Assembly: GCF_028368995.1 (NCBI RefSeq) | Contig: NZ_JAQNDL010000001.1 | Coordinates: forward strand, 192,001 to 256,000 | DNA length: 64,000 nt | Direction: 5' to 3' | From: Nannocystis bainbridge | GTDB lineage: Bacteria; Myxococcota_A; Polyangia; Nannocystales; Nannocystaceae | Shown: positions 657 through 64,000 of the stretch, piece after piece | How positions within the stretch are numbered: the first letter of the stretch is position 1 | Layout: every line of letters begins with the position of its first letter | Position numbers and translations under genes: made by a program | Notes under the pieces: model-generated | Told to the model about the DNA's origin: nothing | What the model saw: only the letters and a program-made list of their open reading frames with translations | The model's database searches: none

Positions 657-1616
657 ATGCCCGCCCCGATCGCCATCTTCTACGAACACCCCGATTGGTT
701 CCGCCCGCTGTTCGCCGAGCTCGAACGTCGGGGATTGCCCGTCGTCCGACTCGCCGCCGATCAGAGCCGCTTCGACCCGGCCGAGCGCGACCCGCCCTTC
801 GGCCTCGTGTTCAACCGCGCAAGTCCCTCCGCCTATCTGCGCGGTCGCGGTCAGACCACGCATTACACCCTCGCAATTTTGCGGCACTGGGAGCGGCGCA
901 AGATCCCCGTCGTCAACGGCAGCGCCGTCTACCGCTACGAGGTCTCCAAGGCCGACCAACTCGGCCTCCTCGACGACCTCGGCCTCGGCTACCCGCGGGC
1001 CCACGTCATCAACTACCCCGGCCAGGCCCTCGCCGCCGCCGCCGGTCTGCGCTGGCCGATCCTCGTCAAGGCCAACGTCGGCGGCAGCGGGGCTGGCATC
1101 CGCCGCTTCGACACCCCGGCCGAGCTGGCCGCCGCCGCCGATCGCGGCGAGCTCGACCTCGGCGTCGACCACACCGCGCTGGTGCAGGAGCTGTGTCCCT
1201 TGCGCGGCGGCAAGATCGTCCGGGTCGAGGTCGTCGGCCGCAAGTTCCTCTACGCCATCGAGGTGTTCCCCCCGCCCGCCTCGTTCAACCTGTGCCCGGC
1301 CGACGCCTGTCAGACCGCCGACGGCCGTGACCTCGAGCGCTCCGCCTGTGCCCTCGACGCCCCGAAGACCGGCATGCGCGTCCAGGGCTACAACCCCCCG
1401 CCCGAGGTCATCCGCGCCGTCGAGGCGATCGCCGAGGCCGCCGCGCTCGACGTCGGCGGCGTCGAGTACCTCGTCGACGACCGCGACGGCGAGATCTACT
1501 TCTACGACATCAACGCCCTCTCGAACTTCGTCGCCGACGCCCCGCGCGTCGTCGGCCTCGACGCCTTCGCCCGCTGCGTCGACTACCTGCAGGCCCGCTG
1601 GGAAGCCGGTATCTGA
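657..1616 (+). CDS. ATP-grasp (RimK/GshB-like) ligase
   Basis: WPILVKANVGGSGAGI, LVQE, GGVEYL...YFYDINALSNF ATP-grasp motifs. Confidence 0.8.
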   Translation: MPAPIAIFYEHPDWFRPLFAELERRGLPVVRLAADQSRFDPAERDPPFGLVFNRASPSAYLRGRGQTTHYTLAILRHWERRKIPVVNGSAVYRYEVSKADQLGLLDDLGLGYPRAHVINYPGQALAAAAGLRWPILVKANVGGSGAGIRRFDTPAELAAAADRGELDLGVDHTALVQELCPLRGGKIVRVEVVGRKFLYAIEVFPPPASFNLCPADACQTADGRDLERSACALDAPKTGMRVQGYNPPPEVIRAVEAIAEAAALDVGGVEYLVDDRDGEIYFYDINALSNFVADAPRVVGLDAFARCVDYLQARWEAGI

Positions 1617-1690
1617 CCTTTCGACCATGTTCTCGGGGCCATGTCCTTCCATCCTGTCGAAACGACCATGTCCCGAGGGTCCTGCGACCC
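1612..1690. repeat. 14-bp periodic palindromic array (degenerate)
   Basis: CATG/CCTG cores at 1626, 1640, 1653, 1667, 1681. Confidence 0.7.
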
Positions 1691-1762
1691 TGCAGGAGCA
1701 GCCATGCCCCGCCCACTGCTCGCCGCTCCCGCGCCTGACCGCGCGACCGTATAGGACCCGCC

Positions 1763-2782
1763 ATGCGCTTCGGCTACTGGCTCCCCGTGTTCGGCGGCTG
1801 GCTACGCAACGTGCCCGACGAGGGCATGGCGGCCACCTGGGACTACGCGCGCAGGCTCGCGGTGCGCAGCGAGCAGCTCGGCTACGACCTCACCCTCGTC
1901 GCCGAGCTGTTCCTCAACGACATCAAGGGCCCGGCCGCGCCCGCGCTCGACGCCTGGACCACCGCCGCCGCCCTGGCCGCCGTCACCACCCGCCTGGAGC
2001 TCATGGTCGCGGTCCGGCCGACCTTCCACAGCCCGGCGATCTTCGCCAAGCAGGCCGCCAACCTCGATCAGATCAGCGGCGGCCGGCTCGCGCTCAACGT
2101 CGTCTCCTCGTGGTGGTCCGACGAGGCCCGCCGCTACGGCGTCCGCTTCGAGCGCCACGACGACCGCTACGCCCGCACCGACGAGTGGCTGCGGATCGTC
2201 ACCGGCGCCTGGAGCGAGCCCGAGTTCAGCTTCCGCGGCCAGTTCTACGAGGTCGAGGGCTGCGTGCTCGCGCCCAAGCCCGCGCGTCGCCCCGTCCTCT
2301 ACGCCGGCGGCGAGTCGGAGGCCGCCAAGACGCTGATCGCCCGCGCCTGCGACGCCTACGTCATGCACGGCGACCCGCCCGAGCGCGTCGCCCCCAAGGT
2401 CGCCGACATGCGCCGCCGCCGTGAAGCCCTCGGCTTGCCGCCGATGAGCTTCGGCATGGCCGCCTACGTGATCGTCCGCGCCAGCGAGGCCGAGGCCGAA
2501 AGCGAGCGCGCGCGCATCACCGACGTCTCCGAGGGCTCGCCCGGCTACGCCAACTACCGCGACTTCTTGCAGAACACCCAGCTCGATCAGCAGGTCAGCC
2601 GCGAGGACTACTCGGTCTCGAACCGGGGCCTGCGCGCCGGCCTCGTCGGCACCCCCGCGCAGGTCGCGGAGCAGATCCGCCGCTTCGAGGCCGCCGGCGT
2701 CGACCTGCTGCTGCTGCAGTGCAGCCCCCAGCTCGAGGAGATGGAGCGCTTCGCCGCCGAGGTGATGCCGCTGCTGCGCTGA
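1763..2782 (+). CDS. LLM-class flavin-dependent monooxygenase (SfnG/SsuD-like)
   Basis: MRFGYWLPVFGG, LELMVAVRP, LDQISGGRLALNVV, YAGGESE, LVGTPAQVAE. Confidence 0.9.
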   Translation: MRFGYWLPVFGGWLRNVPDEGMAATWDYARRLAVRSEQLGYDLTLVAELFLNDIKGPAAPALDAWTTAAALAAVTTRLELMVAVRPTFHSPAIFAKQAANLDQISGGRLALNVVSSWWSDEARRYGVRFERHDDRYARTDEWLRIVTGAWSEPEFSFRGQFYEVEGCVLAPKPARRPVLYAGGESEAAKTLIARACDAYVMHGDPPERVAPKVADMRRRREALGLPPMSFGMAAYVIVRASEAEAESERARITDVSEGSPGYANYRDFLQNTQLDQQVSREDYSVSNRGLRAGLVGTPAQVAEQIRRFEAAGVDLLLLQCSPQLEEMERFAAEVMPLLR

Positions 2783-2850
2783 CATGGCCCAAGCGACATG
2801 TCCTGAGGGCAACCGCATGTCCTCAAGGACATGTTTTTAAAGACATGTCA
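2780..2850. repeat. 14-bp periodic palindromic array
   Basis: CATG at 2783, 2797, 2816, 2830, 2844; perfect TGTCC-TCAA-GGACA at 2818-2831. Confidence 0.8.
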
Positions 2851-2959
2851 CTGCCCGTCTCACTCCCCGCCCACGGCAACTTCGACCCCAACGGTCGTTG
2901 GCGCCTCTCCTCACGTCGTCCGCTTGCAAAACGCAGGGCCCGCCGCGCGACCTCTCCTT

Positions 2960-4615
2960 GTGCGACTCCGGCTGCTCCTCCCCCTCGCCTTCGTCCCCTC
3001 CTGCATCGATTTTGTCCTCGACGCCGACCTCGACGGCCCGCGGATCGTCGCCACCGACCTCCCCGGTCCGCGCGCCCTCGAGGTCCCGGTCGCGGGCCCG
3101 TGGCAGCTCGAGTTCAGCGAGCCGCTCGACCCGCATCGGCTGCGGCTCGCCCTGCTCGCCTGGGAGACTGTCGGCGCCTGCGAGCTCACCCCCGAGTGCG
3201 ACGAGGGCAGTTGCGAGCGCGGCCGCTGCCAGACCGATCCCATCGCCACCGCCGACCTGCGCGCCGTGGAGCGCGGCGAGCCGCTCGACGACGCCATCCC
3301 GATCACCGTCGACCTCGAGGACCTGCCCTCCCGGCCAGGTACGACCCTGCGCATCACCCCGGACCGTCCGCTCGCGCCACACGCCCGCCACAGCCTCCTC
3401 GTGTTCGCCCGCGACCGCCGCGGCGCCCCCCTGGTCGACGACGACGGCGAGGCCGCGGTGTGGCGGCGCGACCTCGTCACGGCCGGTCCGGCCAGCTCGG
3501 GCCCGGCGCCGCGGCTGGTGTCGCCGCCGCCCGGGGCCGACCTCGTGCCCACCGATCTCGCCCGGGTCGACATCGCCTTCGCCCGCCCCGTCGACGCCCG
3601 CGCCAGCGATACCCTGGAGCTGCGCAGCCCCGACCCGCCCCGTGAGCTGCGCGATCCGGTCCCGTGCCCCGGCTGGGTGCCTGGCCTCTGCCTGTCCTTC
3701 AGGACATCCGAGCCGCTCGCCCCCGGCGTCGTCTACGAGCTCGGCGGCGGCAGCCTGCGCGACCGCGCCGGCCGTCTGTTGGTCCCGCCGCGCGAGTTCG
3801 CCGCCTTCCGCACCGGCCCTGGCCCCGACCTCAGCCCGCCCGATCTCGCGAGCCTCGCCTTCGTCCAGATCGGCCGCTGCCTGCACGCCCGCCTGCACGC
3901 CCGCGAGCCGCTGCGCCTGCGCCTGGTCGTCGGCCCCGAAGCGCGCGAGCTCGTCGCCCCGGCCGGCCCCGTCGACCTCGGCCTCCGCCTCGACGCCCCC
4001 GCCGGCGCCCGCGTCACCGCCACCTTGCAGGCCTGGGACCTCGCCGGTCGCACCGCCGAGCGCAGCGAAGAACATGTCCTCGGGGACAGCTTCGATCGCG
4101 GCGCCCCGCCGCTCGCGCTCGCCGAGGTGCTGGCCAACCCGCGCGGCCGCGAGCCCGCGCAGGAGTTCGTCGAGCTGGCCGATCTGCGCACCACCGGCGA
4201 TCCGCTGCTCGTCAGCGGCCTGCGCCTCGTCGACGGCCCCGCGGGCGCCGTCGAGCTGGATGGCGGCGATCCGCTGCCCCCGTTCACCAGCGCCCCCGGT
4301 CAGCGCCACCTGATCGTCCCGGCCGCTTACGATCCCGATCAGGGCGACGATCCGGGCCCGCCGCCGGGCACCTCGCTCCTGCGCGTCGACGCCTCTCTGG
4401 CCGCGGGTGGGCTCAAGAACAGCCCCGGCGAGGCGCTCCTCCTGGTCTTCGAGGCAGGTGCGAAAGGCCCTGTCGCATTGGACAGCTACGGCGGCTGGCA
4501 CGACCCGGGCGATCTCCCGGGGCGCTCGCTCGCCCGCGACCCCGGCGGCTGCGACACCCCCGCCGCCTGGGCGCCGCACCCGAGCGGGCGCGCGAACCCG
4601 GGCCTCGGCCCGTGA
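2960..4615 (+). CDS. Lipoprotein with Ig-like (Big_5-type) and lamin-tail-like domains
   Basis: GTG start, lipobox-like FVPSC; FSEPLDP and FARPVD Ig-like motifs; LAEVLANPRG..QEFVEL lamin-tail signature. Confidence 0.65.
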   Translation: MRLRLLLPLAFVPSCIDFVLDADLDGPRIVATDLPGPRALEVPVAGPWQLEFSEPLDPHRLRLALLAWETVGACELTPECDEGSCERGRCQTDPIATADLRAVERGEPLDDAIPITVDLEDLPSRPGTTLRITPDRPLAPHARHSLLVFARDRRGAPLVDDDGEAAVWRRDLVTAGPASSGPAPRLVSPPPGADLVPTDLARVDIAFARPVDARASDTLELRSPDPPRELRDPVPCPGWVPGLCLSFRTSEPLAPGVVYELGGGSLRDRAGRLLVPPREFAAFRTGPGPDLSPPDLASLAFVQIGRCLHARLHAREPLRLRLVVGPEARELVAPAGPVDLGLRLDAPAGARVTATLQAWDLAGRTAERSEEHVLGDSFDRGAPPLALAEVLANPRGREPAQEFVELADLRTTGDPLLVSGLRLVDGPAGAVELDGGDPLPPFTSAPGQRHLIVPAAYDPDQGDDPGPPPGTSLLRVDASLAAGGLKNSPGEALLLVFEAGAKGPVALDSYGGWHDPGDLPGRSLARDPGGCDTPAAWAPHPSGRANPGLGP

Positions 4616-4656
4616 GATTGCCGAAAGCCGCCCGATCGGCGATGCTCCGCCGCCGC

Positions 4657-6909
4657 ATGGCCGCCCCCGAGACCCCCGACAACGAGGCCGCTGGCGAGCG
4701 GATCGAGGGGGCCGTGCTCCGCGTCGTGCACCACAACCCGCAGACCCGCTACACGGTGCTGCGGGTCGTGCGGCCCGGCGAGGTCGCGCCGCAGACGTGG
4801 GTCGGCCGCTCGACCGGCATCGAGGAGGGCATGCAGGTCACCGCCGCCGGCGAGTGGACGCACCACCCGAGCTACGGCAAGCAATTCAACTTCGCCCGCA
4901 TCGCCGCCAAGGCCCCGACCACCCCGGCGGGCATCCAGCGCCGGCTCGAGCGCTACCCCGGCCTCGGCGCCGAGAAGGCCGAGCGGATCGTCCAGCGCTT
5001 CGGCCTCGACACCCTGTCGATCCTCGACAAGACGCCGCGCCGCCTGCTCGAGGTCGAGGGCATCGGCCCCAAGACGCTCGAGCGGATCGTCGCGCATCAC
5101 ACCGCGCGCGGCGGCCCGACGGCGGAGATCGAGAATCACCTGCTCGAGCTCGGCCTGCCGACCCACTTCGCCGACGCGATCAGCCAGCGGTTCGGGGAGA
5201 CCGCGCTGACCGTCCTGCGCCAGCACCCCTACCGCCTGGCCCGCGAGGTCCGCGGCATCGGCTTCATCACCGCCGACAAGATCGCCCGCGCGCTCGGCGT
5301 CGACCTCGAGAGCGACGAGCGCATCGAAGCCGGCCTGTTCCACACCCTCGAGCAGTCGGAGCAGAACGGCCACTGCGCCCTGCCCATGCCGATCCTCGTG
5401 CAGAACGCCGAGCGCCTGCTCGAGCTGCCGCCGGTCCGCATCGAGGCCGAGGCGATGAAGCTCGTCAACTCCGGCGCGCTCGTCCTCGACCGGCGCGAGG
5501 GTGACGACGGCGAGCCGATGCCGCCGCTGTGCTACCCGCCGCGCTTCTACGACGCCGAGCGCAACGTCGCCGAGATCCTCACCGACATCGCTCTCGGGGC
5601 CGGCAAGGGCCGCGGGCGCTGGACCGCCGTCGAGCCGCCCTCCGGCCTGTCCGCCGGCCAGCTCGCCGCGATCGAGGCCATCCGCGACGCCGGCCTCGTC
5701 ATCCTCACCGGCGGCCCCGGCACCGGCAAGAGCACCGTCACCCGCGCGATCATCGACACCGCGCTCGCCAACGAGTCGCCGGTGCTGCTGGCCGCGCCGA
5801 CCGGGCGCGCCGCCAAGCGCCTGGCCGAGGCCACCGGCCAGCGCGCCACCACCATCCATCGCCTGCTCGAGATCGAGGGCGGCACCGGCGAGTTCTTCCA
5901 CAACGCCCACAACCCGCTGCCCGAGGGTCTGGTCGTGATCGACGAGGCGTCGATGCTCGACCTCTCGCTGGCCGAGGCGCTGCTGCTCGCGCTCACGCCC
6001 CAGCACCGGCTGCTGCTCGTCGGCGACGCCGACCAGCTGCCCTCGGTCGGCCCCGGCAACGTCCTGCGCGACGTGCTCGCCGCCACCGACCGCGCCGACT
6101 CGCCGATCCCGGTGGTGCGGCTGACCCAGATCTTCCGCCAGGCCGAGGGCTCGTCGATCGTCACCTCGGCCCACGCGATCCTGCGCGGCAAGGTCCCCGA
6201 GTCCGACCGCAGCGACGGCGGCCAGTTCTACGTCGTCCAGGCCCGCGACAGCGAGCGCGCCCACGAGCTGGTGCTCAAGGCCATCACCGAGCGGATCCCC
6301 AAGGCTTACGGCCTCGACCCGCGCACCGAGGTCCAGGTGCTGTGCCCGATGCACAAGGGCAAGGCCGGCACCGAGGCCCTCAACGCCGCGCTGCAGGCCC
6401 ACCACACCGCCGGCGCGCCCGAGTTGGTCCTGCCCGGCCGTCCGCCGCGGGTCTTCCGCGTCGGCGACCGCGTGATGCAGACCAAAAACGACCACGAGCG
6501 CGGCGTCTTCAACGGCGACATCGGCCTCGTCACCGCCGTCGACCCCGACCGCCAGACCCTCACCGTCGAGGTCGACGGCGATCCTGTCCCTTACGACGCC
6601 AAGCAGCTCAACGCGCTGCAGCTCGCCTACGCCGTCTCGATCCACAAGAGCCAGGGCAGCGAGTTCCCGGCCGTGGTCGTGCCGCTGCTCAGCGAGCACC
6701 ACGTCATGCTGCGCCGAAACCTGCTCTACACCGCCGTCACCCGCGCCCGCCGGCTGTGCGTCCTCGTCGCCGACCCGCGCGCGCTGACCCAGGCCGTCCA
6801 CCGCAGCGACGCCGCCCGCCGGTTCACCGGCCTGCGCGAGCGCCTGCTCGCCGCCCTGCGCGAGCGCCTCGGCGAGCGCCGCACCGTCCGCCACATCGAC
6901 GGCGCATGA
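4657..6909 (+). CDS. recD2: ATP-dependent RecD-like DNA helicase RecD2
   Basis: HhH motifs (PGLGAEKA, EGIGPKT), Walker A GGPGTGKS, DEASM, GDADQLPSVG, YAVSIHKSQGSEF, YTAVTRA. Confidence 0.95.
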   Translation: MAAPETPDNEAAGERIEGAVLRVVHHNPQTRYTVLRVVRPGEVAPQTWVGRSTGIEEGMQVTAAGEWTHHPSYGKQFNFARIAAKAPTTPAGIQRRLERYPGLGAEKAERIVQRFGLDTLSILDKTPRRLLEVEGIGPKTLERIVAHHTARGGPTAEIENHLLELGLPTHFADAISQRFGETALTVLRQHPYRLAREVRGIGFITADKIARALGVDLESDERIEAGLFHTLEQSEQNGHCALPMPILVQNAERLLELPPVRIEAEAMKLVNSGALVLDRREGDDGEPMPPLCYPPRFYDAERNVAEILTDIALGAGKGRGRWTAVEPPSGLSAGQLAAIEAIRDAGLVILTGGPGTGKSTVTRAIIDTALANESPVLLAAPTGRAAKRLAEATGQRATTIHRLLEIEGGTGEFFHNAHNPLPEGLVVIDEASMLDLSLAEALLLALTPQHRLLLVGDADQLPSVGPGNVLRDVLAATDRADSPIPVVRLTQIFRQAEGSSIVTSAHAILRGKVPESDRSDGGQFYVVQARDSERAHELVLKAITERIPKAYGLDPRTEVQVLCPMHKGKAGTEALNAALQAHHTAGAPELVLPGRPPRVFRVGDRVMQTKNDHERGVFNGDIGLVTAVDPDRQTLTVEVDGDPVPYDAKQLNALQLAYAVSIHKSQGSEFPAVVVPLLSEHHVMLRRNLLYTAVTRARRLCVLVADPRALTQAVHRSDAARRFTGLRERLLAALRERLGERRTVRHIDGA

Positions 6910-6995
6910 CCTTCAGGACATGTCCTCGGTGACATGTCCGAGAGGCCTGGTCGACAGCGCTGCTGGCTCGCGACATGTTCTCTTGGACATGTCCG
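6902..6995. repeat. 14-bp periodic palindromic array
   Basis: Cores at 6905 (overlaps the recD2 stop), 6919, 6933, 6946, 6974, 6988. Confidence 0.85.
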
Positions 6996-7505
6996 GGCGG
7001 CCAGTCGCCCCCGCGCCCCATGCCGTCGCGCCCGGCTCGCCGAGGCGGCCCTCGTTGTGGGCGCAGCTCCACACGCATGCGCACGCGCCTCGCAGCCGAG
7101 AACGCCGGGAGCTCGCGCCAAACCAGCTGCGGCAGGCCGCGCCGGCGGTGTACCGGCCGTGAACGCCGTCAGCGCCGGGCATGACGGTGCCCGCCGCTGA
7201 CCACTGCCTGGGCCGCCTCGGCCCTCGCCCCGCCCGACCTTCACGGTGTTCGTCCCGGCCCGCCGCTGCTGCTCGCGCCGGCCTGGCCGGTGACTCGGTG
7301 GAAACCGCGAGAGCGACGAAACAGCGCCCACCGCCGCGATCACCGCCGGCCCACGAAGCGCGGAGCTCTCGGTCCGAACGTCTGTCCCGAGGTCACCACC
7401 GGCGCACCCCGACGGCCGCCGCGGACCCGCCCGAAAACCCACGCTCGCACCCGCTGCGAGGGTGCTTTTTTCCGCCAGGCGCGTGTGGTACTGACCTCGG
7501 TCAGG

Positions 7506-8252
7506 ATGTCCGGCCACAGCAAATGGTCCACGATTAAGCGCAAGAAGGGGGCGCTCGACGCCCAGCGCGGCAAGATCTTCACCAAGATCGCCCGCGAGAT
7601 CATGGTCGCCGCGAAGGACGGCGGCGGCGACCCGTCCGGCAACCCGCGCCTGCGCACCGCGCTGCTGGCCGCCCGGGCTGCCAACATGCCCAAGGAGAAT
7701 CAGGAGCGCGCGATCAAGAAGGGCACCGGCGAGCTCGCCGGCGTCACCTTCGAGAACGTGCTCTACGAGGGCCGCGGCCCCGGCGGCTCGTGCTTCATCG
7801 TCGAGGTGTTGACCGACAACAAGAACCGCACCGTCGCGGAGATCCGCACCGCCTTCGGCAAGTCCGGCGGCGAGATGGTGTCGAGCGGCGCGGTCTCGTG
7901 GATGTTCGATCACCGCGGCGTGCTCGAGGTCCCCAAGGTCAAGATCAGCGAAGAGGCGCTGATGGAGCGGGCGCTCGGCGCCGGCGGCGAGGACATCCAG
8001 GACTGGGGCGAGTCGTGGGCCATCATGTCGTCGCCGAGCGATCTGGCCGGGCTGCAGACCGAGCTCGCCGACCTCGAGCCGGCCGGCGGCGTGCAGTGGA
8101 TCGCCAAGCCCGAGAACGAGAAGGCGCTCGACGGCGACGTGGCGGTCTCGGTGGCGAAGTTGTGGGCCAAGCTCGACGAGCACGACGACGTGCAGAGCTG
8201 CTACACCAACGCCACCTTGCCCGACGAGGTCATGGAGGAGCACGGCCCGTAG
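7506..8252 (+). CDS. yebC: YebC/PmpR family protein
   Basis: MSGHSKWSTIKRKKG, YEGRGPGG, TDNKNRT. Confidence 0.97.
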   Translation: MSGHSKWSTIKRKKGALDAQRGKIFTKIAREIMVAAKDGGGDPSGNPRLRTALLAARAANMPKENQERAIKKGTGELAGVTFENVLYEGRGPGGSCFIVEVLTDNKNRTVAEIRTAFGKSGGEMVSSGAVSWMFDHRGVLEVPKVKISEEALMERALGAGGEDIQDWGESWAIMSSPSDLAGLQTELADLEPAGGVQWIAKPENEKALDGDVAVSVAKLWAKLDEHDDVQSCYTNATLPDEVMEEHGP

Positions 8253-8265
8253 GCCGCGGACCCTG

Positions 8266-8769
8266 TTGACGGGCGCCACGCGGATCCTCGGCGTCGATCC
8301 CGGAACTCGGATCGTCGGCTACGGCCTCCTCGATCATCAGATCGGGGCGCGCCCCGTCTATATCGAGTGCGGCGTCATCCGCCTGCGCGCAGAAGATCCG
8401 ATGGCCGTTCGCCTGTCCGTCCTCGCCCGCACGATCGCCGAGCTCATCGTCGAGTTCGGCCCGCGCGTCCTCTCGCTCGAGGCCGCCTTCCACGGCGTCA
8501 ACGCCAGCTCCGCGCTCAAGCTCGGCCAGGCCCGCGGCGCCGTCATGGCCGTCGCCGCCGAGCGCGGCCTCGAGGTCGCCGAGTACCCGCCCGCCTACGT
8601 CAAGCGCGCCGTCGTCGGCCACGGCCGCGCCAGCAAGCAGGACGTCATGGCGCGCATGCAACTGCTCTTCAACCTGGCGCGCGCCCCCACGGCTGACGCC
8701 GCTGACGCCCTCGCCATCGCGCTGTGCCACGCGCACGCGCCCAAGCTGCCCCGGAGGACAGGTCCATGA
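8266..8769 (+). CDS. ruvC: Holliday junction resolvase RuvC
   Basis: ILGVDPGTRIVGYG, LGQARG, DAADALAIA. Confidence 0.96.
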   Translation: MTGATRILGVDPGTRIVGYGLLDHQIGARPVYIECGVIRLRAEDPMAVRLSVLARTIAELIVEFGPRVLSLEAAFHGVNASSALKLGQARGAVMAVAAERGLEVAEYPPAYVKRAVVGHGRASKQDVMARMQLLFNLARAPTADAADALAIALCHAHAPKLPRRTGP

Positions 8770-9395
8770 TCGGCTGGTTGTCGGGCATCGTCGTCCATCG
8801 CGACCCCAGGCAGGGCGTCGTCGTCCTCAACGTCGGCGGCGTCGGCTACGAGCTGCGCGTCTCGCTGCAGACCCTCGCTGCCGTCGGCGACGCCGACGAG
8901 CACTGCGCCCTGTGGGTCCACACGCACGCCCGCGAGGACGCGCTGATGCTGTTCGGCTTCGCCACCCAGGCCGAGAAGCAGCTGTTCTTGCTGCTGACGG
9001 CCGTGCCCAAGGTCGGCCCCAAGCACGCCATGGCGGTCCTCGGCGGCTTCCCGCTGGCCGAGCTGGTCGACCACCTCACCCAGGGCCGCGAGATCATGCT
9101 GACGAAGATCCCCGGCATCGGCAAGAAGACCGCTGAGCAGATCCTGCTGTCGATCGCCGACAAGGTCGCCGCCTTCGCCGTCGAGCTCGAGGGCGGCCCG
9201 CGCAGCACGAGCCCCGCCAAGGCCGAGCCGGAGTCGCCCGCGATCGTCGAGGAGGCCAAGCAGGTGCTGGTCGACCTCGGCTGGCGCGTCAAGGAGGTCG
9301 AGCTGGCCCTGGCCAAGCTCACCGCCGGCGGCCCCGTCACCGCCTCGATCGACGACCTGGTCCGCCGCACCCTCGCCCAGCTGATGGAGCGCTGA
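8766..9395 (+). CDS. ruvA: Holliday junction branch-migration protein RuvA
   Basis: MIGWLSG, VGGVGYE, REDALMLFGF, VPKVGPKHA, IPGIGKKTAE; ATGA overlap with ruvC. Confidence 0.96.
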   Translation: MIGWLSGIVVHRDPRQGVVVLNVGGVGYELRVSLQTLAAVGDADEHCALWVHTHAREDALMLFGFATQAEKQLFLLLTAVPKVGPKHAMAVLGGFPLAELVDHLTQGREIMLTKIPGIGKKTAEQILLSIADKVAAFAVELEGGPRSTSPAKAEPESPAIVEEAKQVLVDLGWRVKEVELALAKLTAGGPVTASIDDLVRRTLAQLMER

Positions 9396-9396
9396 G

Positions 9397-9490
9397 CGGC
9401 CTGTCCGTGAGAGCATGCCCGTGAGGGCATGCTCTCAGGTACATGTCCGTACGGGCATGTCGTCTCGAACATGCCCTCTCGACCAGGCGC
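9397..9490. repeat. 14-bp periodic palindromic array between convergent genes
   Basis: Cores exactly 14 bp apart at 9400, 9414, 9428, 9442, 9456, 9470, 9484. Confidence 0.9.
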
Positions 9491-9529
9491 TCGCGTCGCC
9501 CCCGAATCTACCTGTCCTTCGGGCCAGCC

Positions 9530-10945
9530 CTACCCGCCGGCCGTCTGCAGCTCGGCGACGTACCAGTCGCCCCACTCGAGCCGCATCTGCATCACCAGCG
9601 TGGCCGGCTGCTTGCCGTCGGGGTCCTGGTTGCGCAGGGTGACGACCGCGTGCGGGGCGTAGGCCCCGGGCACGATCTCGAGCCGCTCGACCGCCAGGCG
9701 AGCGCCGCGCTTGAACCGCCCGGTGGCCTCGGCGAACGCGAAGGTGCGGGCGGCGTCGACCGTCTGCAGGCGCATCATCGCCGCGTTCATGGCCGTGTCG
9801 GCGTCGCTCTCGGCGAAGAAGCGGGCGCCGACGTAGGCCTGGGCGAACTCGAAGAAGAAGCTGATGACCTGGTCCTTGGACAGCGCGCCCTCGACCCCGA
9901 GCGCCTCCATGAAGCCGCGCGTGCCGGTGCGGAGGACGACGTCCTGGACCTTGGAGAACGGCAGCTCCTCGGCGCCCTCGGGCTCGGAGTCGACGATGTC
10001 CTCGAGCGCGGCCACGAACTGCTGGACCGCCGCCCGCCCGTCACCCGGCAGCTGCTCGGCGATGGTGGTCATGGTGCGCTGGCGGATCTTGCGGCTGTAG
10101 GTCGGCGACATCATGCGCCGCGCGACCTCGAGGTCGCCGCCGTCGAGCGCCTTGAGGAAGCCGCGGGCCCGCTCCGTCGCGCGCGCGCTCTGCTCGGCCG
10201 GCGTGTCCATGTCCGGCAGCTCGCTCAGCATCTGCGCCGCCTCGGAGATCGGGATCGCGTAGCCGCCGACGCGGTGCTTCCACGTCCAGCTGACCACCCC
10301 GACCACGCGGCCGAAGCGGTCGAGCACCGGCCCGCCGCTCTGCCCGCGACGCACCGCCTGCGACAGCCCGAAGAACGCCCCCGGCCCGACCGCAGGGTTG
10401 TAGACCGCGAGCTCGCGGACGTCGCCGGTGCGGGCCACGAACCCGGTCGTCGGCTTGCCGCCTGGACCTGTGGCCTCGTCCTCGCCCGGGCGCGCCAGCA
10501 GCAGCACGCGGTCCTTGGCCTGCAGGTAGTCCTCGATCGGCGCCGAGCCGACGGTCGCAAGCGGCAAGGACGGCAGCGGCGCGTCGACGTCGACCTTGAT
10601 CAGCGCGAGGTCGCGGCTCGGATCGATGTAGACGATGCGGACCGCGGCGAAGCTGCGCGGGGGCTTCAGCGCCGGGAACGTGATGTCCTCGATGTGATCG
10701 GCGTCCTCGATCACGTGGCGGTTGGTGATGAGATAGCCGTCGGGGTCGACCACGAACGCGAGGCCGCGGCCGACGTCGGTCGAGATCACCGCGACCGCCG
10801 CGGCCCCCTTCTGCGCCACCGCGATGTCCTGGAGGGCGCGCCCGGCCTTGCCGCGCTCCAAATTCACGTCGCCGATCGGGCGGCTGGCACAGCCCAGGGC
10901 GACGAGGGCGGCGCACAGCGACAGGATCCGGATCGCAGCAGGCAC
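9530..10945 (-). CDS. Trypsin-like (S1C-type) serine protease lipoprotein
   Basis: GGAGG RBS before GTG 10945; lipobox LGC; triad TNRH, RDLAL, GQSGGP; C-terminal helical domain of unknown type. Confidence 0.8.
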   Translation of the reverse strand: MPAAIRILSLCAALVALGCASRPIGDVNLERGKAGRALQDIAVAQKGAAAVAVISTDVGRGLAFVVDPDGYLITNRHVIEDADHIEDITFPALKPPRSFAAVRIVYIDPSRDLALIKVDVDAPLPSLPLATVGSAPIEDYLQAKDRVLLLARPGEDEATGPGGKPTTGFVARTGDVRELAVYNPAVGPGAFFGLSQAVRRGQSGGPVLDRFGRVVGVVSWTWKHRVGGYAIPISEAAQMLSELPDMDTPAEQSARATERARGFLKALDGGDLEVARRMMSPTYSRKIRQRTMTTIAEQLPGDGRAAVQQFVAALEDIVDSEPEGAEELPFSKVQDVVLRTGTRGFMEALGVEGALSKDQVISFFFEFAQAYVGARFFAESDADTAMNAAMMRLQTVDAARTFAFAEATGRFKRGARLAVERLEIVPGAYAPHAVVTLRNQDPDGKQPATLVMQMRLEWGDWYVAELQTAGG

Positions 10946-11384
10946 AACCTCCAGGCTACGGCACGCCCGCGACGCGGGCCAGCCGGAAGCAAATTCCCGT
11001 GTGGGCGCGCCCACGGACGCGCTCGCGGCCCGGGCGCGCCGCCGCGCGAGCCCCTGCGTCTGCGCCGGACCACCGCGGCCGAGCCCGCACCCGCCGTCGT
11101 CGCGACCGACATGTCACCAGTCCCGAGAGACCTGGCCCAAGAGACAGCATGAATCATGCCCGCGGAGGGCGCGCGGCGAGGTGCGGACCCGCCGTCGCGT
11201 CCGCCGATCTAGCGACGCCCGCCGCGAGATCATGAGCCCGCGTTCACGCGGCCCGCAATCGCGGGAAAGCGCCCACGCCTGTCGCTCGTGGCCCACGCGG
11301 CGGCGCATGTCCTGCCACACGCGCGCCGCTGGCCGCCGTCGAGTTCGCCGCCGCACCGCTGTGTTAGCGTGCGGTCGGACCTCC

Positions 11385-12827
11385 ATGACTCGCCTCATCG
11401 CCTACATCTCGATCCCCTGCGCGCTCGCTCTCGCACCGCTCGCCGCGGCGGCCGATCCCGGTCAACAGACGCTGTTCGGCCAGCCGGTGCAGGCCGCGCC
11501 CGAGCTCACCGAGGAGGAGATCGCGGAGCGGCGGGCCGCCTTCGAGAAGTACCTCGACGACAACGACCTCATCCACGCCGGCGGGCTCGTGGTCCCGCGG
11601 TCGATGGCCGAGGACGATCTCCAGGCCGGCCCGCGGCCGACCTACGCCTGGGACACCCCGCCGAAGCGCCACACGGTGTTCCTCAACTTCTTCGGCGGCG
11701 AGATGACGGGCGGCACCAACTCGGCGTTGATGGAGTCGCCGTGCATTCAGGGCGGCAAGGTCCAGTACCCGCAGTTCCTGCGCTCGGAGCAGGAGGCGCT
11801 GGCGATCATCCAGGTGTTCCAGGACGCGATGACCCCGTTCGGCGTGCGCATCGCCTACGAGAAGGCGCCGCCGAAGCACCTGCCGTACAGCATGGTGATG
11901 ATGGGCGGCAAGCCGGGGGTGATCGGCCTGCCGAACGGCGTGCTCGGCGTCGCCTGCAACCTCGACTGCGGCGACACATGGTGGCGCGACACGACCTTCG
12001 CCTTCACCGAGGTCGCCGGCGACATCCAGGTGCTCGGCACCACCGCGCTGCAGGAGGCCGCGCACGCGTGGGGCCTCGACCACATCGACGGCGAGGACAA
12101 CATCATGTACCCGTACGCCACCTTCGGAAAGAAGGTGTGGGCCGACACCTGCACGCCGTACAACGCGGCTACGGGGCCGATCGGCTGCGAGTACGTGCAC
12201 GACGAGTTCTGCGGCGAGAACGGCGGGGCGCAGAACGACGTCGCCGAGCTGATGGCGTTCTTCGGCGCCAACTCGGTCGACGACGTGCCGCCGACGGTCA
12301 CGCTGCTGTCGCCCGCCGACGGCGCTGTGATCGAGCCCGGCACCGACGTCCTCGTCGAGGCCGAGATCAGCGACAACTTCGAGGGCTACGGCTGGCGCAT
12401 GATGATCCCCGAGGCCGACATCGAGGCGCCCGCCTACTCCGGCGAGAAGGAGTGGTCGATCAAGCCGCCGAAGGGCACCTACACGATCCGCGTCGAGGCG
12501 CTCGACCACGACGGCAACATCGGCTTCGCCGAGGCCGTGATCCACGTCGGCGTCGAGCCGGCCGACCCGACCACCGGCGAGCCGACCACCGGCGACACCT
12601 CCGACACCGGCGACACCACCGACGGCCCGTCGAGCGAGACCGACACCGAGGGCAACGTCTCGGGCGGCTCCAACGGCACCTCGGCCACCGCCACCGCCAC
12701 CTCGCCGCTCGATCCCGGCGGCGACGAGAGCGGCTGCAACTGCGTCACCGCGCCTGTCTCTCGCGACATGTCCGTTTGGATGTTCGCGCTCGCCGGCCTC
12801 GGCCTCGTTCGCCGGCGCCGCTCCTGA
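11385..12827 (+). CDS. Secreted zincin-like protein with Ig-like domain and MYXO-CTERM anchor
   Basis: Signal peptide; QEAAHAWGLDH..NIMYP (Met-turn); PPTVTLLSPADG Ig-like; Thr-rich linker; SGCNC + TM + RRRRS tail. Confidence 0.8.
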   Translation: MTRLIAYISIPCALALAPLAAAADPGQQTLFGQPVQAAPELTEEEIAERRAAFEKYLDDNDLIHAGGLVVPRSMAEDDLQAGPRPTYAWDTPPKRHTVFLNFFGGEMTGGTNSALMESPCIQGGKVQYPQFLRSEQEALAIIQVFQDAMTPFGVRIAYEKAPPKHLPYSMVMMGGKPGVIGLPNGVLGVACNLDCGDTWWRDTTFAFTEVAGDIQVLGTTALQEAAHAWGLDHIDGEDNIMYPYATFGKKVWADTCTPYNAATGPIGCEYVHDEFCGENGGAQNDVAELMAFFGANSVDDVPPTVTLLSPADGAVIEPGTDVLVEAEISDNFEGYGWRMMIPEADIEAPAYSGEKEWSIKPPKGTYTIRVEALDHDGNIGFAEAVIHVGVEPADPTTGEPTTGDTSDTGDTTDGPSSETDTEGNVSGGSNGTSATATATSPLDPGGDESGCNCVTAPVSRDMSVWMFALAGLGLVRRRRS

Positions 12828-12837
12828 CCCCGCGGCC

Positions 12838-13731: not shown

Positions 13732-13770
13732 GCCCGCCTGCTCCGGTTCGGGCTCCCGCCACCGCTCCCA

Positions 13771-13865
13771 GGACATGCTCGATCGGCCATGACCTCGAGG
13801 ACATGCCACTCAAGACATGTTCCTTCGAACATGCCCTCGAGAGCATGTCCTCTACGAGCATGAAG
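13771..13865. repeat. 14-bp periodic palindromic array between convergent genes
   Basis: CATG at 13774, 13788, 13802, 13816, 13830, 13844, 13859. Confidence 0.92.
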
Positions 13866-13867
13866 GC

Positions 13868-15154: not shown

Positions 15155-15206
15155 CGGCGCGTCCCGCCGAATTTCTCACGAGTCGCGAGAGCCGCGCAAG
15201 CGGGCG

Positions 15207-16418: not shown

Positions 16419-16438
16419 GGCCCGCGAGTGTAGCAGCG

Positions 16439-18333: not shown

Positions 18334-18398
18334 GGGCTCTGTGCGGGACTTCCTAGCAGATGCCCGGGACCCGCGCGATGTCCGGCCTCGCCCGCGCA

Positions 18399-18495: not shown

Positions 18496-18521
18496 TCAAT
18501 GATCTCGACGACTTGCCAACC

Positions 18522-18537: not shown

Positions 18538-18546
18538 CTCAGGGTC

Positions 18547-19781: not shown

Positions 19782-19794
19782 CGCCGGGACCGGA

Positions 19795-39728: not shown

Positions 39729-39733
39729 GCGGG

Positions 39734-61809: not shown

Positions 61810-62014
61810 GTTTCGGAACTTACGTTTTTTTTAGAAGGCTCTCAACTAACAAAACCCCGCCAAACCGGGGAAAGCTGGCGCGGAATATGTGAGTCAGCGC
61901 GCGATCGCGCCGTTGACAAGCGCGCGCTCGCAAGCGCAGGTAGGGCCCTCGCCTGGCCGGAACCCGGTCCGAGGCGCGCTGCTTGACAAGTCATCCACGC
62001 ACGCGGTCGGGCTG

Positions 62015-62203
62015 GATCTCCAGCCCGGTTCGAAGAGGGAAATCGGTGCGGTGCCTCGACTCACGTCGAGCGCCCAGTCCGATGCGGCTCCCGCCACTGT
62101 GAACGGCGACGAGACCGGCGACCCCGCAAGGGGACCACTGCGGCCATGGGCCGTGGGAAGGCGCCGGTCGAGGATGACCCGTAAGCCAGGAGACCTGCCG
62201 TGT
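62015..62203 (+). ncRNA. Cobalamin riboswitch
   Basis: GGT..AAGAGGGAA.TCGGTG, CCCGCCACTGTGA, CCACTG..GGGAAGG, AAGCCAGGAGACCTGCC; upstream of a TonB receptor. Confidence 0.93.
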
Positions 62204-62415
62204 GCCATGTCCGCCCGCGCCTTTCGGCCGCGGCGGGAGGTCGCGGGAGTTCGACCTCGGGCGCGTCTCGGCGTGGCCCCCGACTCCTGCGATCGCAGCA
62301 CGGCCCGAGGCCGTGACGGCGCCCCGGCTCTCCGGCCGGGGCCTGGTGAGACGGGAGTTCACTCGCCATCGCAATCGCCCCCTTCATACCGCGCCTCCGC
62401 GGCCTCGTCCGCGCC

Positions 62416-64000
62416 GTGGTCGCCGCGCTCGTCGTGCTCCCGAGCGCCGCCGCGCGTGCGGATCGTGAGGCGCCCCCTGCCCCCGGCGGCGAGCCGAACG
62501 TCGACGCCGCGCAGCGTTCGCCGGGCCCTGCGAGCGCCCGGACGGACGGCCGCGAAACGAAGCCCACGTCGGCGCCGCGCCCGGTGAGTCCCCCGAATAC
62601 CGCGGCGCGCCGCGGCCCCTACCACACCGTCGTGCGCGCCGACCAGGGCGACGGCCTCGACGCCCAGCGGCGCCTCGACGCCCAGCGGCCCGGATTTCAC
62701 ACCGCGATCGAGCTGGCCGCCGAGCGCGGCGCGCGGTCGGCCGACGGCCTGCCGGAGATCCTCGCCCGCAGCGCCGGCGCCACCGTGCGCAGCCTCGGCG
62801 GCCTCGGGCAATTCTCGGCGCTGTCGCTGCGCGGCTCGTCGGCCCAGCAGGTGGCGCTGTTCCTCGACGGCGTCCCGCTGTCGGCCGGCAGCGGCGGCGT
62901 CGTCAACCTCGCCGATCTGCCGCTCGACGCCCTCGGCGCGGTCACCATCTACCGCGGATTGGTTCCGATCGCCTACGGCGGGGCCGCGCTCGGCGGCGCC
63001 GTCGACCTCGGCTCCGACCTGCGCTGCGACCCGGTCCCGCGCCTGCGCGCGGTCGTCGGCGCCGGCTCGTTCGCCGCCCGCGAGGCCCGCGTCGGCGCCA
63101 GCGTCCCGCTCGTCGCCAGGTCCAAAGGACATGCCCCAAAGAACATGTCCTCGGCGCCACGTCATTGCCTCGCCGTGCGCGCCGGCTACACCGGGGCGGC
63201 CGGCGATTTCCGCTTTCACAACATCGGCGAGACCCCGCTCGACCCGAGCGACGACCGCCTCGATCGCCGCGTCAACAACAGCTACGACCGCGCCCTGACC
63301 CAGGTGGCCGTGCACGGCCGCGTCGGCGACCTGCGCTACAGCGTGCAGGAGCTGGTGTTCGTCAAGGATCAGGGCGTGCCCAGCATGGCCACCGGGGCCC
63401 AGGCCCGGCGCACCCGGCTCGGCACGGTGTCGGCGCGCACGGTCGCGCGGGTCCGGCGGACCTGGTCCCGAGGACATGTCGAGGGCGTGTTCGGCGTGCT
63501 CGCCGAGCAGGTCCGCTTCCGCGATCCGCTCGGCGAGATCGGCCTCGCGCGCGACGACCAGCGCACGCGCGCGCTCGACCTCTACGCCTCGCCGCGCGGC
63601 CGCGTCGGCGTGTGGCGCGGCGCCGAGATCGGCCTCGTCGCCGACGTGCGCGGCGAGCTGATCCGCGTCGACGAGCGCGCCGCCTCGACCGGCCCGCTCG
63701 GCGCCACCGGCGACGCCGATCGCCGCCGCGTCGCCGGCGGCCTCGGGCTCGAGCTCGACCAGCGCCTGCTCGCCGGCCGCCTGCAGCTCGCGCCCGCGGT
63801 GCGGCTCGACGTCCTCCGCAGCGCCTTCGCGGTGCCGCCCGGCCAGGGCGAGCAGAGCGACGAGGGCCGCGATCACACCAGCCTCGGCGTCTCGCCGCGG
63901 CTCGGCATGCGTCTGTCTCTTCGGCCAGGTCTCAGCCTGCGCGCCAGCGCCGGCCGCTACTTCCGCCCGCCGACCCTGGTCGAGCTGTTCGGCGATCGCG
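62416..64000 (+). CDS. TonB-dependent receptor, BtuB-like (3' truncated by the window)
   Basis: Frame-1 ORF missing from the ORF track; plug motif VRSLGGLGQFSALSLRGSSAQQVALFLDGVPL; FRPPTLVELFG; start uncertain. Confidence 0.88.
   Translation, partial: MVAALVVLPSAAARADREAPPAPGGEPNVDAAQRSPGPASARTDGRETKPTSAPRPVSPPNTAARRGPYHTVVRADQGDGLDAQRRLDAQRPGFHTAIELAAERGARSADGLPEILARSAGATVRSLGGLGQFSALSLRGSSAQQVALFLDGVPLSAGSGGVVNLADLPLDALGAVTIYRGLVPIAYGGAALGGAVDLGSDLRCDPVPRLRAVVGAGSFAAREARVGASVPLVARSKGHAPKNMSSAPRHCLAVRAGYTGAAGDFRFHNIGETPLDPSDDRLDRRVNNSYDRALTQVAVHGRVGDLRYSVQELVFVKDQGVPSMATGAQARRTRLGTVSARTVARVRRTWSRGHVEGVFGVLAEQVRFRDPLGEIGLARDDQRTRALDLYASPRGRVGVWRGAEIGLVADVRGELIRVDERAASTGPLGATGDADRRRVAGGLGLELDQRLLAGRLQLAPAVRLDVLRSAFAVPPGQGEQSDEGRDHTSLGVSPRLGMRLSLRPGLSLRASAGRYFRPPTLVELFGDR

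Follow-up and report, generated by a model that had tools for sequence, protein, structure and literature searches.

MetJ met-boxes and the heptads of the omega repressor are abutting short palindromes or heptads that ribbon-helix-helix dimers bind cooperatively. These arrays make up a few operators per genome, and they lie in promoters. Rickettsia palindromic elements are mobile, 100–150 bp long, and also occur in frame within protein-coding genes.

REP/BIME elements, and REPINs with their RAYT transposases, are described from enterobacteria and Pseudomonas as short clade-specific palindromes, present in hundreds to thousands of copies, that form clusters of alternating orientation 3' of genes and in convergent gaps and fold strongly (PMC3116915, PMC3337134). 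Accounts of the cyanobacterial HIP1 (GCGATCGC) present a short lineage-limited palindrome of coding and non-coding DNA that is over-represented by about two orders of magnitude, arises in place by substitution, and is reported to be conserved at genic sites above expectation (PMC5861425, PMC4390886). The over-representation is given there as 15- to 300-fold (PMC5861425), and for HIP sites Elhai has suggested a repair process that depends on methylation (PMC4390886). The uptake sequences DUS (Neisseriaceae) and USS (Pasteurellaceae) are described as words of roughly 10 bases in about 10^3 copies, with clade-specific variants, that occur in genes and terminator regions and spread by drive, not by transposition (PMC2397512, PMC3630211, PMC2346458).

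The word TGTCC-N4-GGACA is exceptionally common in the 11-Mb genome of a soil myxobacterium, the Nannocystis species from which the window (the whole stretch of 64,000 nucleotides analysed here) comes. Perfect copies number 1,987 genome-wide against 3 of the reversed control, and an additional 4,258 sites match at nine of the ten bases (161 for the reversed control); the word is 156 times commoner than predicted from its own 5-mer frequencies. The window holds 6 perfect copies where 0.03 are expected, a count reached in 0 of 100 shuffles. A preliminary description had proposed exactly this unit, and it proves correct: TGTCC followed by GGACA pairs at gap 4 only (1,987 versus a background of 0–32). 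The reverse order pairs at gap 0 only (n = 956). A recognisable adjoining half-site is lacking for 493 of the 1,987 units versus 33 of the 956 GGACATGTCC decamers; units abut, so that GGACATGTCC recurs every 14 bp. The extended form of the word is CATGTCC-YYRR-GGACATG, with a symmetric Y-Y-R-R spacer. The predicted recurrence of CATG, with a variable 4-base spacer and strict phase, also holds. In the window, distances between CATG sites of 14, 28 and 42 bp occur 31, 18 and 14 times, and any other distance 0–6 times. Genome-wide the same three peaks reach 3,736, 2,073 and 1,586, over a background of 72 at 13 bp, 262 at 15 bp and about 80–320 elsewhere.

Arrays were sought by chaining GGACATGTCC-like units at 14 (±1) bp, and 1,221 arrays with at least three chained units were found in the genome. 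In the window, this independent search recovers all ten clusters named before and adds 63114–63150 (Table). The four perfect isolated units of the preliminary description are exact matches, four arrays fill convergent gaps as it had stated, and the remaining window arrays that it named lie 3' of a stop codon. Its statement that these are not CRISPR stands, and there is also no match to an Rfam family. A literature search found no description of 14-bp palindrome arrays.

Table. Units and arrays in the window; ORF limits are crude GC3-based gene calls, and z refers to the RNA fold.
Feature	Position	Gene context	Further observations
Weak 2-unit array	1623–1646	Just 3' of stop of ORF 657–1616 (+)	Unit scores 7 and 9 of 10
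Two chained arrays (2 + 3 units)	2780–2850	3' of stop of luciferase-like monooxygenase ORF 1763–2782 (+)	
Perfect unit	2818–2831	Within array 2780–2850	
Perfect single unit	3693–3706	Long N-terminal extension of RecD2-like ORF 3664–6909	3 of 4 other species retain the core
Perfect single unit	4075–4088	N-terminal region of RecD2-like ORF 3664–6909	3 of 4 species retain the unit; the fourth differs by one change
Two arrays (3 + 2 units)	6902–6994	From stop codon of RecD2-like ORF	Stop TGA overlaps first CATG; z −4.35
6-unit array	9397–9476	2 bp past ruvA-like ORF 8724–9395 (+)	Perfect 13-bp stem, GTGA loop; z −5.29
6-unit array	13771–13865	Fills convergent gap: Smr-domain ORF (ends 13731, +), CNNM/CorC ORF (ends 13868, −)	Chained units span 13771–13850; z −4.6 and −5.0 (one per strand)
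2-unit array and one perfect decamer	23848–23899	Downstream of sigma-54 activator ORF stop (23991, −)	
Perfect single unit	29259–29272	Within ORF 29017–30309 (+)	No change in 3 of 4 other species
Two 2-unit arrays	30329–30393	Convergent gap: ORFs end 30309 (+), 30405 (−)	
5-unit array	33896–33961	Convergent gap: ORF 32813–33889 (+, TsaD-family hit), ORF 33986–34840 (−)	z −3.77
One-mismatch unit	38231–38244	Within polA	Codes KHVAKDI; perfect unit in genome G005
Three separate hairpin units/arrays	39540–39563, 39636–39659, 39680–39730	Kinase/FGE-sulfatase ORF stop (39734, −) to polA start	Stems kept, loops differ across five species; z −3.53
Perfect unit	39641–39654	Within 39540–39730	
6-unit array	44247–44326	Convergent gap: ORFs end 44236 (+), 44338 (−)	z about −8, both strands; centre (44260–44295) a perfect hairpin with A-run and T-run, like a two-way intrinsic terminator
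3-unit array	63114–63150	In frame within ORF 62416–(64719) (+)	Position shared by all five species; lengths differ by multiples of 3 in 3 of 4; segment in G007 185 nt, frame not kept
Weak 2-unit chain, could be chance	63458–63481	Within ORF 62416–(64719) (+)	

The arrays are concentrated at gene 3' ends. By the calls of a crude GC3 gene caller, which cover about 78% of the genome with some starts over-extended, 471 of the 1,221 arrays lie in convergent, 371 in tandem and 51 in divergent gaps. The corresponding densities are 0.88, 0.28 and 0.08 per kb, a roughly tenfold excess of convergent over divergent gaps that extends the expected enrichment at convergent 3' ends to the whole genome. On the same calls, the median distance from stop codon to array is 12–30 bp, 42–53% of convergent gaps of 50–400 bp hold arrays, and a unit lies within 100 bp past the stop of 1,623 of the 6,658 called genes, compared with 445 within 100 bp ahead of the start.

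Among the genomes searched, enrichment of the motif is confined to three genera of the host family. Totals are similar in those Nannocystis genomes that are large (1,550–2,090), and unit density falls to 0–1.1 per 20 kb in low-GC, probably younger DNA versus 4.1–4.4. Arrays hold their position across five species while their sequence turns over fast. For 8 window arrays followed into four other species, at least two chained units are present at 31 of 32 orthologous places and at least three at 21 of 32. Between species, intergenic units show core identities of 0.67–0.78 and N4 identities of 0.32–0.58, versus 0.87–0.88 for other intergenic DNA. The three-genus range, this turnover at fixed places, the units and arrays in coding sequence and the stable RNA folds are observations beyond the preliminary description.

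Even within genes, the word is favoured as DNA. Called genes contain 844 perfect units, versus 3–7 in five codon shuffles; 327 of the 844 are flanked on either side by true coding signatures, and 114 arrays lie within coding sequence. The in-frame form GTC-CNN-NNG-GAC carries the flanking T and A in 450 of 691 cases versus 0.7% expected. All three reading frames contain the word, which imposes T-ending codons, yet only 4.3% of third codon positions are T. Within cores, third positions are 95% identical between species (145/152; 99/104) versus a baseline of 85–87%, and first and second positions are conserved less than average. The units themselves are kept at 15 of 26 places versus 11.9 ± 2.4 for matched places, which is not significant. 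Where genic units differ between two species, an indel lies nearby in 7 of 16 cases. The segment with the polA unit aligns with distant bacterial PolA with a one-residue gap at most, and this unit therefore arose by substitution.

We consider the word a clade-specific dyad that is most likely read as duplex DNA by a putative dimeric protein, with the arrays as two-way barriers at gene ends, and give this reading a probability of about 0.4. Protein binding, the dimeric state and the role of the arrays are each what we infer from the pattern. A dimer of this kind would recognise TGTCC-N4-GGACA sequence-specifically in double-stranded DNA. Single words are scattered over the chromosome, genes included; base substitution accounts for part of those in genes, and others stand in segments with indel differences as well. 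In unconstrained sequence directly past stops, above all in convergent gaps, words are stacked end to end. Adjoining sites share the self-complementary CATG, which produces the strict 14-bp phase and would provide platforms for 3–9 dimers. Such platforms would most likely act as a protein roadblock or insulator in both directions, with the strong RNA hairpins of the array sequence assisting. The preliminary description had likewise favoured a duplex site for a dimeric protein; the almost independent variation of half-sites, the exact spacing and the absence of G.U or loop asymmetry fit it. No binding protein for the word was found, which counts against it, as do the non-significant retention of genic units, the low conservation of first and second codon positions in their cores, and the indels near units that differ between species.

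Alternatively, the arrays may act single-stranded, in RNA as bidirectional 3'-end hairpins for transcript termination or protection, or in DNA as hairpins or cruciforms; a putative mobilising or slippage process would spread them and leave genic units as by-products, as for REP/BIME. We regard this as unlikely. All 8 folded array stretches reach z −3.5 to −8, for each of them 0 of 200 shuffles fold equally well, and folds this stable make a REP-like hairpin role conceivable. Position shortly past stops and within roughly half of the convergent gaps of intermediate size, together with such folds, would be expected of a REP-like or terminator hairpin and counts against the duplex reading, as does the fact that intergenic units lack the conservation of ordinary operator sites. 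Long perfect hairpins with A/T runs (e.g. 44260–44295, 9414–9443), turnover at fixed places as in REP clusters, recent tandem amplification in some arrays, and identical adjoining spacers at 4–5% versus 1.2% point the same way. So does the scarcity of canonical hairpin-plus-T terminators (9 versus 4.3 expected in 20 kb); only one of them overlaps a unit, at 4075–4088, a single unit within an ORF and not a gene-end array. Stem variation, however, is dominated by one-sided changes. The innermost pair has 407 + 461 of them and 127 compensated T-A pairs versus 101 under independence; the next pair has 111 + 170 and 38 versus 13.5. The slight excess of compensated pairs (1.3–2.8×) speaks against the duplex reading, the scant covariation at flanking positions for it. 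G.U-compatible changes in co-directional gaps show no strand preference (312 sense, 272 antisense), and loop words are as frequent as their complements, with no asymmetry relative to the transcription strand, although strand bias is not to be expected of every palindrome used both ways. Across arrays, spacers show weak reverse-complementarity (3.5% at best versus 1.2%), T/A runs are barely enriched (3.07 versus 1.97 per kb; array GC 59%), and no Y1/RAYT transposase was found in the host genome (90.5% complete). A 14-bp unit, moreover, cannot insert in frame, which sits poorly with the 327 units in true coding context, some of which arose by substitution.

A HIP1-like origin, in which motif-directed repair or modification converts near-matches and functionless arrays pile up in unconstrained DNA, seems decidedly improbable. 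The 156-fold over-representation lies within the range given for HIP1 (PMC5861425), and Elhai's repair proposal also speaks for this origin (PMC4390886). Presence in all frames at the price of rare codons, steady turnover with similar totals, genic units kept no more than matched controls, and lower density in probably younger DNA agree with such a process. No C5 methylase was found in the genome, however, which leaves a Vsr-type route without basis, and the one D12 methylase found belongs to a family that 57 of the 61 genomes in the order sample have, with or without the motif. The D12 enzyme thus failed the phyletic test as motif partner, and the methylation link raised earlier has no support. 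A neutral sink also leaves unexplained the tenfold deficit in divergent gaps (total length similar to convergent ones), the tight stop distance and the strict end-to-end phase. The remaining proposal, an uptake or recombination signal preferred by a putative surface or periplasmic receptor and spread by uptake and recombination, we hold very unlikely. To our knowledge, described uptake sequences are non-palindromic and do not form phased arrays of 3–9 units, which counts against it. In its favour, thousands of copies are confined to a three-genus clade, the word is under-represented in atypical DNA, and it occurs within genes as well as at their ends, a distribution shared by the uptake sequences of Neisseriaceae and Pasteurellaceae (PMC2346458, PMC2397512, PMC3630211). 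ComEC and DprA homologues are present in the host but also in 10–11 of 14 control genomes, and are therefore uninformative.

On the best reading, the Nannocystis word resembles REP/BIME, HIP1 and uptake sequences and is a member of none. It shares with REP/BIME the features described at the outset, but its unit spans just 14 bp, has a 5-bp half-site, stacks without linkers in strict phase, lacks a detected Y1/RAYT gene, has stems almost without compensatory change, and includes hundreds of units and 114 arrays in coding sequence. It shares with HIP1 lineage limits, genic and intergenic presence, over-representation and origin by substitution. Unlike that contiguous octamer, it is bipartite (5-N4-5), forms phased arrays strongly tied to gene 3' ends, has no matching methyltransferase identified, and shows no significant excess of genic-site conservation. 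Copy number, word length, clade specificity, sites of occurrence and a putative spread by drive without transposition recall DUS and USS, whereas the Nannocystis word is palindromic and builds arrays whose heterogeneous units number up to 9. As in Rickettsia palindromic elements, palindromic repeats stand in frame within genes, but each unit measures 14 bp, and substitution produced at least some of the genic copies. MetJ and omega operator arrays offer a likeness in linkerless head-to-tail sub-units that place dimers side by side, the Nannocystis unit being two inverted 7-bp halves; unlike them, it forms more than 1,000 arrays, and these avoid promoter regions.

The repeated unit of the arrays is a 14-bp palindrome, TGTCC-N4-GGACA. 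The CATG periodicity that the preliminary description had predicted at 14/28/42 bp is found both in the window and genome-wide. In the window (72% G+C), 31 pairs of CATG lie 14 bp apart, 18 lie 28 bp apart and 14 lie 42 bp apart, with 0–6 at other distances up to 99 bp. The window is C1:192001-256000 of the host assembly (11.05 Mb, 5 contigs), across which the corresponding counts are 3,736, 2,073 and 1,586; the neighboring distances of 13 and 15 bp give 72 and 262, and the remaining ones ~80–320. The logo of phased sites reads GGACATGTCC, in which GGACA directly joins TGTCC, followed by four weakly specified bases. Taken singly, the half-sites are near chance (TGTCC 12,351 and GGACA 11,418, versus ~10,000 by composition on our own estimate). 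Their pairing is restricted to two geometries: TGTCC-N4-GGACA occurs 1,987 times (0–32 at other gaps), and GGACA abutting TGTCC, the perfect decamer GGACATGTCC, 956 times versus ~10 predicted by base composition. No recognizable neighbor accompanies 493 of the 1,987 dyads, while 33 of the 956 decamers are isolated. Because of this pairing geometry, and because dyads but seldom decamers stand alone, the unit is the 14-bp dyad, and the decamer marks where two units abut; the unit first proposed, stacked end to end, is thereby upheld.

Genome sites matching 10, 9 and 8 of the 10 fixed bases number 1,987, 4,258 and 7,530, versus 3, 161 and 3,152 for the same pattern read backwards, and this excess places ~6,000–10,000 units above chance. 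The perfect unit occurs at 156 times its 5-mer expectation. Its N4 is symmetric (Y-Y-R-R), its flanks favor C-[A/C] and [T/G]-G, and its second base pair (G:C) hardly varies at all: the 64 deviants there are about what composition gives by chance (our own estimate). Chaining of units spaced 14 ± 1 bp yields 3,487 arrays with at least 2 units and 1,221 with at least 3; arrays of 3, 4, 5, 6, 7, 8 and 9 units number 553, 302, 203, 118, 33, 7 and 4, and one has 20. All ten clusters and four isolated units reported from the window were recovered by exact-match and chain search. A CRISPR array consists of 23–50 bp repeats parted by unique spacers of similar length; a 10-bp core with a 4-bp variable part at a period of 14 bp is not one, as had been stated.

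The location of the arrays was determined against 6,665 ORFs called by our own GC3 > GC1 > GC2 heuristic, which is crude, spans ~78% of the genome and places some starts too far upstream. The proposed placement at gene 3' ends, with enrichment in convergent gaps, was borne out: arrays are densest between convergent genes and lie a median of 12 bp (convergent) or 30 bp (co-directional) past stop codons. Among the 1,221 arrays of at least 3 units, 471 fall in convergent, 371 in co-directional (tandem) and 51 in divergent gaps, and 327 inside called ORFs, which corresponds to 0.88, 0.28, 0.08 and 0.04 per kb. Gaps of 50–400 bp hold arrays in 42–53% of convergent, 6–18% of co-directional and 0–7% of divergent cases. 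In co-directional gaps, 72% of arrays are closer to the upstream stop than to the downstream start. A unit with at least 9 of 10 bases follows the stop codon within 100 bp in 1,623 of 6,658 genes; 445 have one within 100 bp before the start. Perfect units number 562 in tandem, 451 in convergent and 124 in divergent gaps.

Units are also abundant inside genes. Called genes contain 844–849 perfect units versus 3–7 in five within-gene codon shuffles, and 355 decamers versus 6–11. These units occupy all three reading frames, and the core is free of stop codons in every frame. For 327 units and 114 arrays of at least 3 units, both 240-nt flanks show a coding signature, in one and the same frame. 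Around in-frame GTC-CNN-NNG-GAC, the flanking T before and A after are present in 450 of 691 cases versus 0.7% expected; T makes up 4.3% of third codon positions, yet it is favored ahead of in-frame genic cores. The unit in polA arose by substitution, since its segment aligns with distant bacterial PolA with a gap of at most one residue. Coordinates of this and other individual features are collected in the table.

Coordinates of individual features (positions are those of the window, or of contigs C1–C5 of the host genome, G000; G001, G005 and G007 are other Nannocystis species)
Feature	Location	Observation
Largest genome array	G000 C3:552674-552938	20 units by chaining; recent amplification, almost perfect, whose period is 13 bp (GGAGCATGTCCTC) and not 14
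Tandem copies in other arrays	G000 C3:1085839, C3:1816604	Perfect copies of 14 bp or 42 bp
Motif deserts	G000 C1:1807160-1885541, C1:1138240-1215442, C2:1831094-1907030, C5:420759-493832	73–78 kb, G+C 0.68–0.71
ORFs with MarR-like, TetR-like N-termini (by eye)	C1:3992406-3992861 (-), C5:28924-29595 (+)	Perfect unit 76–93 bp upstream, divergent gap
RecD2-like ORF	window 3664-4680	~340-residue extension ahead of the first Pfam domain (start as called uncertain); two perfect units (3693, 4075), largely kept in other species
polA unit	window 38231-38244	Encodes KHVAKDI
ORF of 763 aa	window 41945-44236	No Pfam match; 30-, 51- and 66-bp tandem repeats at 42394-42601, score up to 200
Array in convergent gap	window 44225-44345	Orthologues in G005 and G001 carry unrelated ~330-bp insertions beside the conserved central hairpin; to the eye, the G005 insert looks clearly richer in A+T, perhaps a small acquired gene
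Hairpin within an array	window 44260-44295	Also flanked by A and T runs
Cobalamin riboswitch	window 61987-62216 (+)	RF00174, 93 bits; ~200 bp upstream of ORF 62416-(64719)
ORF downstream of riboswitch	window 62416-(64719)	Also carries an in-frame 3-unit array
In-frame array	window 63114-63150	Translated in frame; found in all five species; lengths differ by 3–9 nt in three; G007 segment 185 nt, frame broken

Array places are kept while the sequence within them turns over. Comparisons between species rest on the window (64 kb) in four species, which are kin and not independent, and on 242 kb aligned in one species. The whole window is colinear in four other Nannocystis species, with 86–98% aligned. 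Identity is 0.86–0.87 at third codon positions and 0.87–0.88 in other intergenic DNA; intergenic units show 0.67–0.78 in their cores and 0.32–0.58 in N4. Unit number and order differ per species at the same gene end, and orthologous array places in the four species hold at least 2 chained units in 31 of 32 cases and at least 3 in 21 of 32.

Inside genes, third positions of cores are 0.95 identical (145/152; 99/104) versus 0.85–0.87, and first and second positions are less conserved than the gene average. All ten bases are kept in 15 of 26 aligned genic units versus 11.9 ± 2.4 at matched places. In a further 460 kb with 38 genic units, 10 are unaligned, 7 have an indel at most 6 bp away, 12 are identical and 9 differ by substitutions only. 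Unit density in low-GC 20-kb windows is 0–1.1 versus 4.1–4.4 per window; the motif deserts may correspond to large biosynthetic clusters or to acquired islands. As judged from these data, gain and loss of units seem to balance in a steady state, pushed by a directional force that could be selection for number or drive; the pattern does not resemble strict conservation of single sites.

Among the genomes scanned, enrichment of the element is confined to part of one family. Host PolA shares 91–93% identity with four named Nannocystis records, and the window encodes a sigma-54 activator, TPR proteins and a Ser/Thr kinase with a fused FGE-sulfatase domain; taken together, these mark the host as a Nannocystis. 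A scan of the genome and its relatives, as had been suggested, found the word enriched in three genera: the perfect word occurs in 114–2,090 copies in 11 of 11 Nannocystis genomes (reversed controls 1–6), in 67–696 copies in a second genus (g4; 6 of 6 genomes), and in 87–169 copies in a third (g2; 3 of 3 genomes). The 13 other genera of the family (41 genomes) have 0–20 copies, and other families of the phylum (120 genomes) at most 13, with controls reaching 28. Phased arrays gave 195 + 163 matches in one g4 genome (control 2 + 0) and were nearly missing in one g2 genome (3 + 3), which has the word; the word can thus exist without arrays. If drive maintains the word, the contrast between three motif-rich and thirteen motif-poor genera in one family should make the responsible gene findable by phylogenetic profiling.

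The reading adopted here, with a probability of about 0.4, is that the word is a duplex recognition site: a putative dimeric protein would read it as double-stranded DNA, the arrays would be stacked sites acting as two-way barriers at gene ends, and RNA hairpins encoded by the arrays might assist the barrier. A REP-like hairpin element is a rather unlikely alternative. RNA folds of eight window stretches reach z-scores of -3.5 to -8 with 0 of 200 shuffles as good, and long perfect hairpins occur within some arrays. Pairing shows weak signatures of selection. The innermost stem pair has 407 + 461 one-sided changes (868) and 127 compensated T-A pairs (101 predicted under independence); the next pair has 111 + 170 (281) and 38 (13.5 predicted). 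Compensated pairs are thus 1.3–2.8 times the independence expectation, and covariation is barely present outside the 5-bp stem. Spacers are reverse-complementary across the putative loop in 3.5% of pairs versus 1.2% background. Co-directional gaps, for which the transcribed strand is known, showed no G.U-compatible strand preference (sense 312, antisense 272) and no loop strand preference either, loop words equaling their complements in frequency; in convergent gaps, absence of strand bias would also be expected of a palindrome transcribed from both sides. TTTT/AAAA runs are little more frequent in arrays (3.07 per kb) than in other intergenic DNA (1.97). A hairpin followed by a T-run is absent from the arrays as a general pattern and holds for single cases such as 44260–44295. 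A terminator scan of window positions 1–20,000 gave 9 matches, one of which overlaps a unit (4075–4088) that is not a gene-end array, and no Rfam match at the gathering score in the window fell on an array, the cobalamin riboswitch being the sole match. The only runs found that bear on RNA contain small shares of the window (0.06–0.13), in the form of contigs, which do not reveal where RNAs end. A structure-based reading was set aside, core compensatory change, spacer complementarity, and G.U and loop strand bias being weak or absent. Exact spacing with independent half-sites is the pattern that a duplex site for a symmetric dimer would give.

Each candidate driver examined (C5 methylase, D12 methylase, ComEC, DprA) gave a negative or an uninformative result. 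Biased repair of the HIP1 kind, whose product would have no function of its own, would likewise spread the word through coding sequence; it is quite improbable. C5 methylase/Vsr-type drive was set aside, as the genome gave no PF00145 match, and D12 methylase was rejected as a specific driver, being carried by 57 of the 61 genomes sampled from the order, motif-rich or not; about nine N6/N4 methylases are encoded besides the D12-class family profiled. A DNA uptake signal, which the copy number would fit, is more doubtful still: ComEC and DprA homologues are present, likewise in most control genomes, and being ubiquitous they are uninformative on uptake. A search for Y1/RAYT (REP-associated Y1) transposases (PF01797; E <= 0.001) gave 0 matches in the host genome, which at 11.05 Mb is 90.5% complete, and matches in 6 of 14 reference genomes used as control; with none found in its own genome, a REPIN-type mechanism was set aside. 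Ten small ORFs have a perfect unit at most 120 bp upstream in divergent gaps; they count as no evidence for an autoregulated binding protein, the resemblance to regulators being by eye.

A more specific version of the protein-barrier reading is speculative and unlikely as a whole: in Nannocystis and two sister genera, a dedicated putative dimeric protein would coat the 14-bp-phased arrays as two-way transcription barriers or insulators, replacing the hairpin-plus-U terminators that are scarce in a 72% GC genome, with the same word driven through the chromosome, including coding sequence; the arrays would then be a bacterial counterpart of eukaryotic roadblock terminators. In either case, a single 14-bp word, in ~6,000–10,000 copies, marks a quarter of all gene ends in 11–13 Mb genomes. 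Binding of a protein to the arrays would provide a new, easily testable system for transcription ending, insulation or chromosome organization, set in a high-GC bacterium in which classical terminators are largely lacking. Were the word maintained by drive (uptake or repair), it would join uptake sequences and HIP1 as a third independent case, the first that is bipartite. The arrays also explain why intergenic regions of Nannocystis are hard to align and why its proteins contain variable linkers in frame, and are relevant to gene calling and to the engineering of Nannocystis natural-product clusters.

The preliminary description knew of no account of this element, and searches of full texts, as distinct from supplementary files (which could hold repeat tables), likewise yielded none; the Nannocystis genome papers searched do not treat such repeats. 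The decamer GGACATGTCC equals the idealized p53 half-site letter for letter, and literature matches to the string are all p53 papers; this identity is taken to be a coincidence. Intrinsic terminators consist of a GC-rich hairpin and then a T-run, which the arrays generally do not fit. REP/BIME elements are similarly high-copy palindromic units after genes and between convergent genes. Those with RAYT have a Y1 transposase flanked by repeats, whereas the search of this genome found none; they are extragenic only, whereas the Nannocystis word is also genic (327 units and 114 arrays in coding context); and their stem-loop is kept by compensatory change, whereas one-sided changes dominate here. 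HIP-type palindromes are reported to be 15- to 300-fold over-represented in coding and non-coding DNA (PMC5861425). The 156-fold over-representation of the Nannocystis word, genic and intergenic, is alike. HIP-type sites would be conserved above expectation; of the genic units here, 15 of 26 are kept versus 11.9 ± 2.4, with third positions at 0.95 versus 0.85 and the others below baseline. A methyltransferase reading the word would co-occur with HIP-type sites; in this genome no C5 methylase was found, and the D12 family is present regardless of motif. With DUS/USS uptake sequences the word shares ~10^3 copies, restriction to one clade, and presence in genes and terminator regions. The element thus shares features with REP/BIME, HIP1 and uptake sequences, for each of them either fails a defining test or differs in architecture, and is rated as belonging among the hyper-abundant genomic palindromes.
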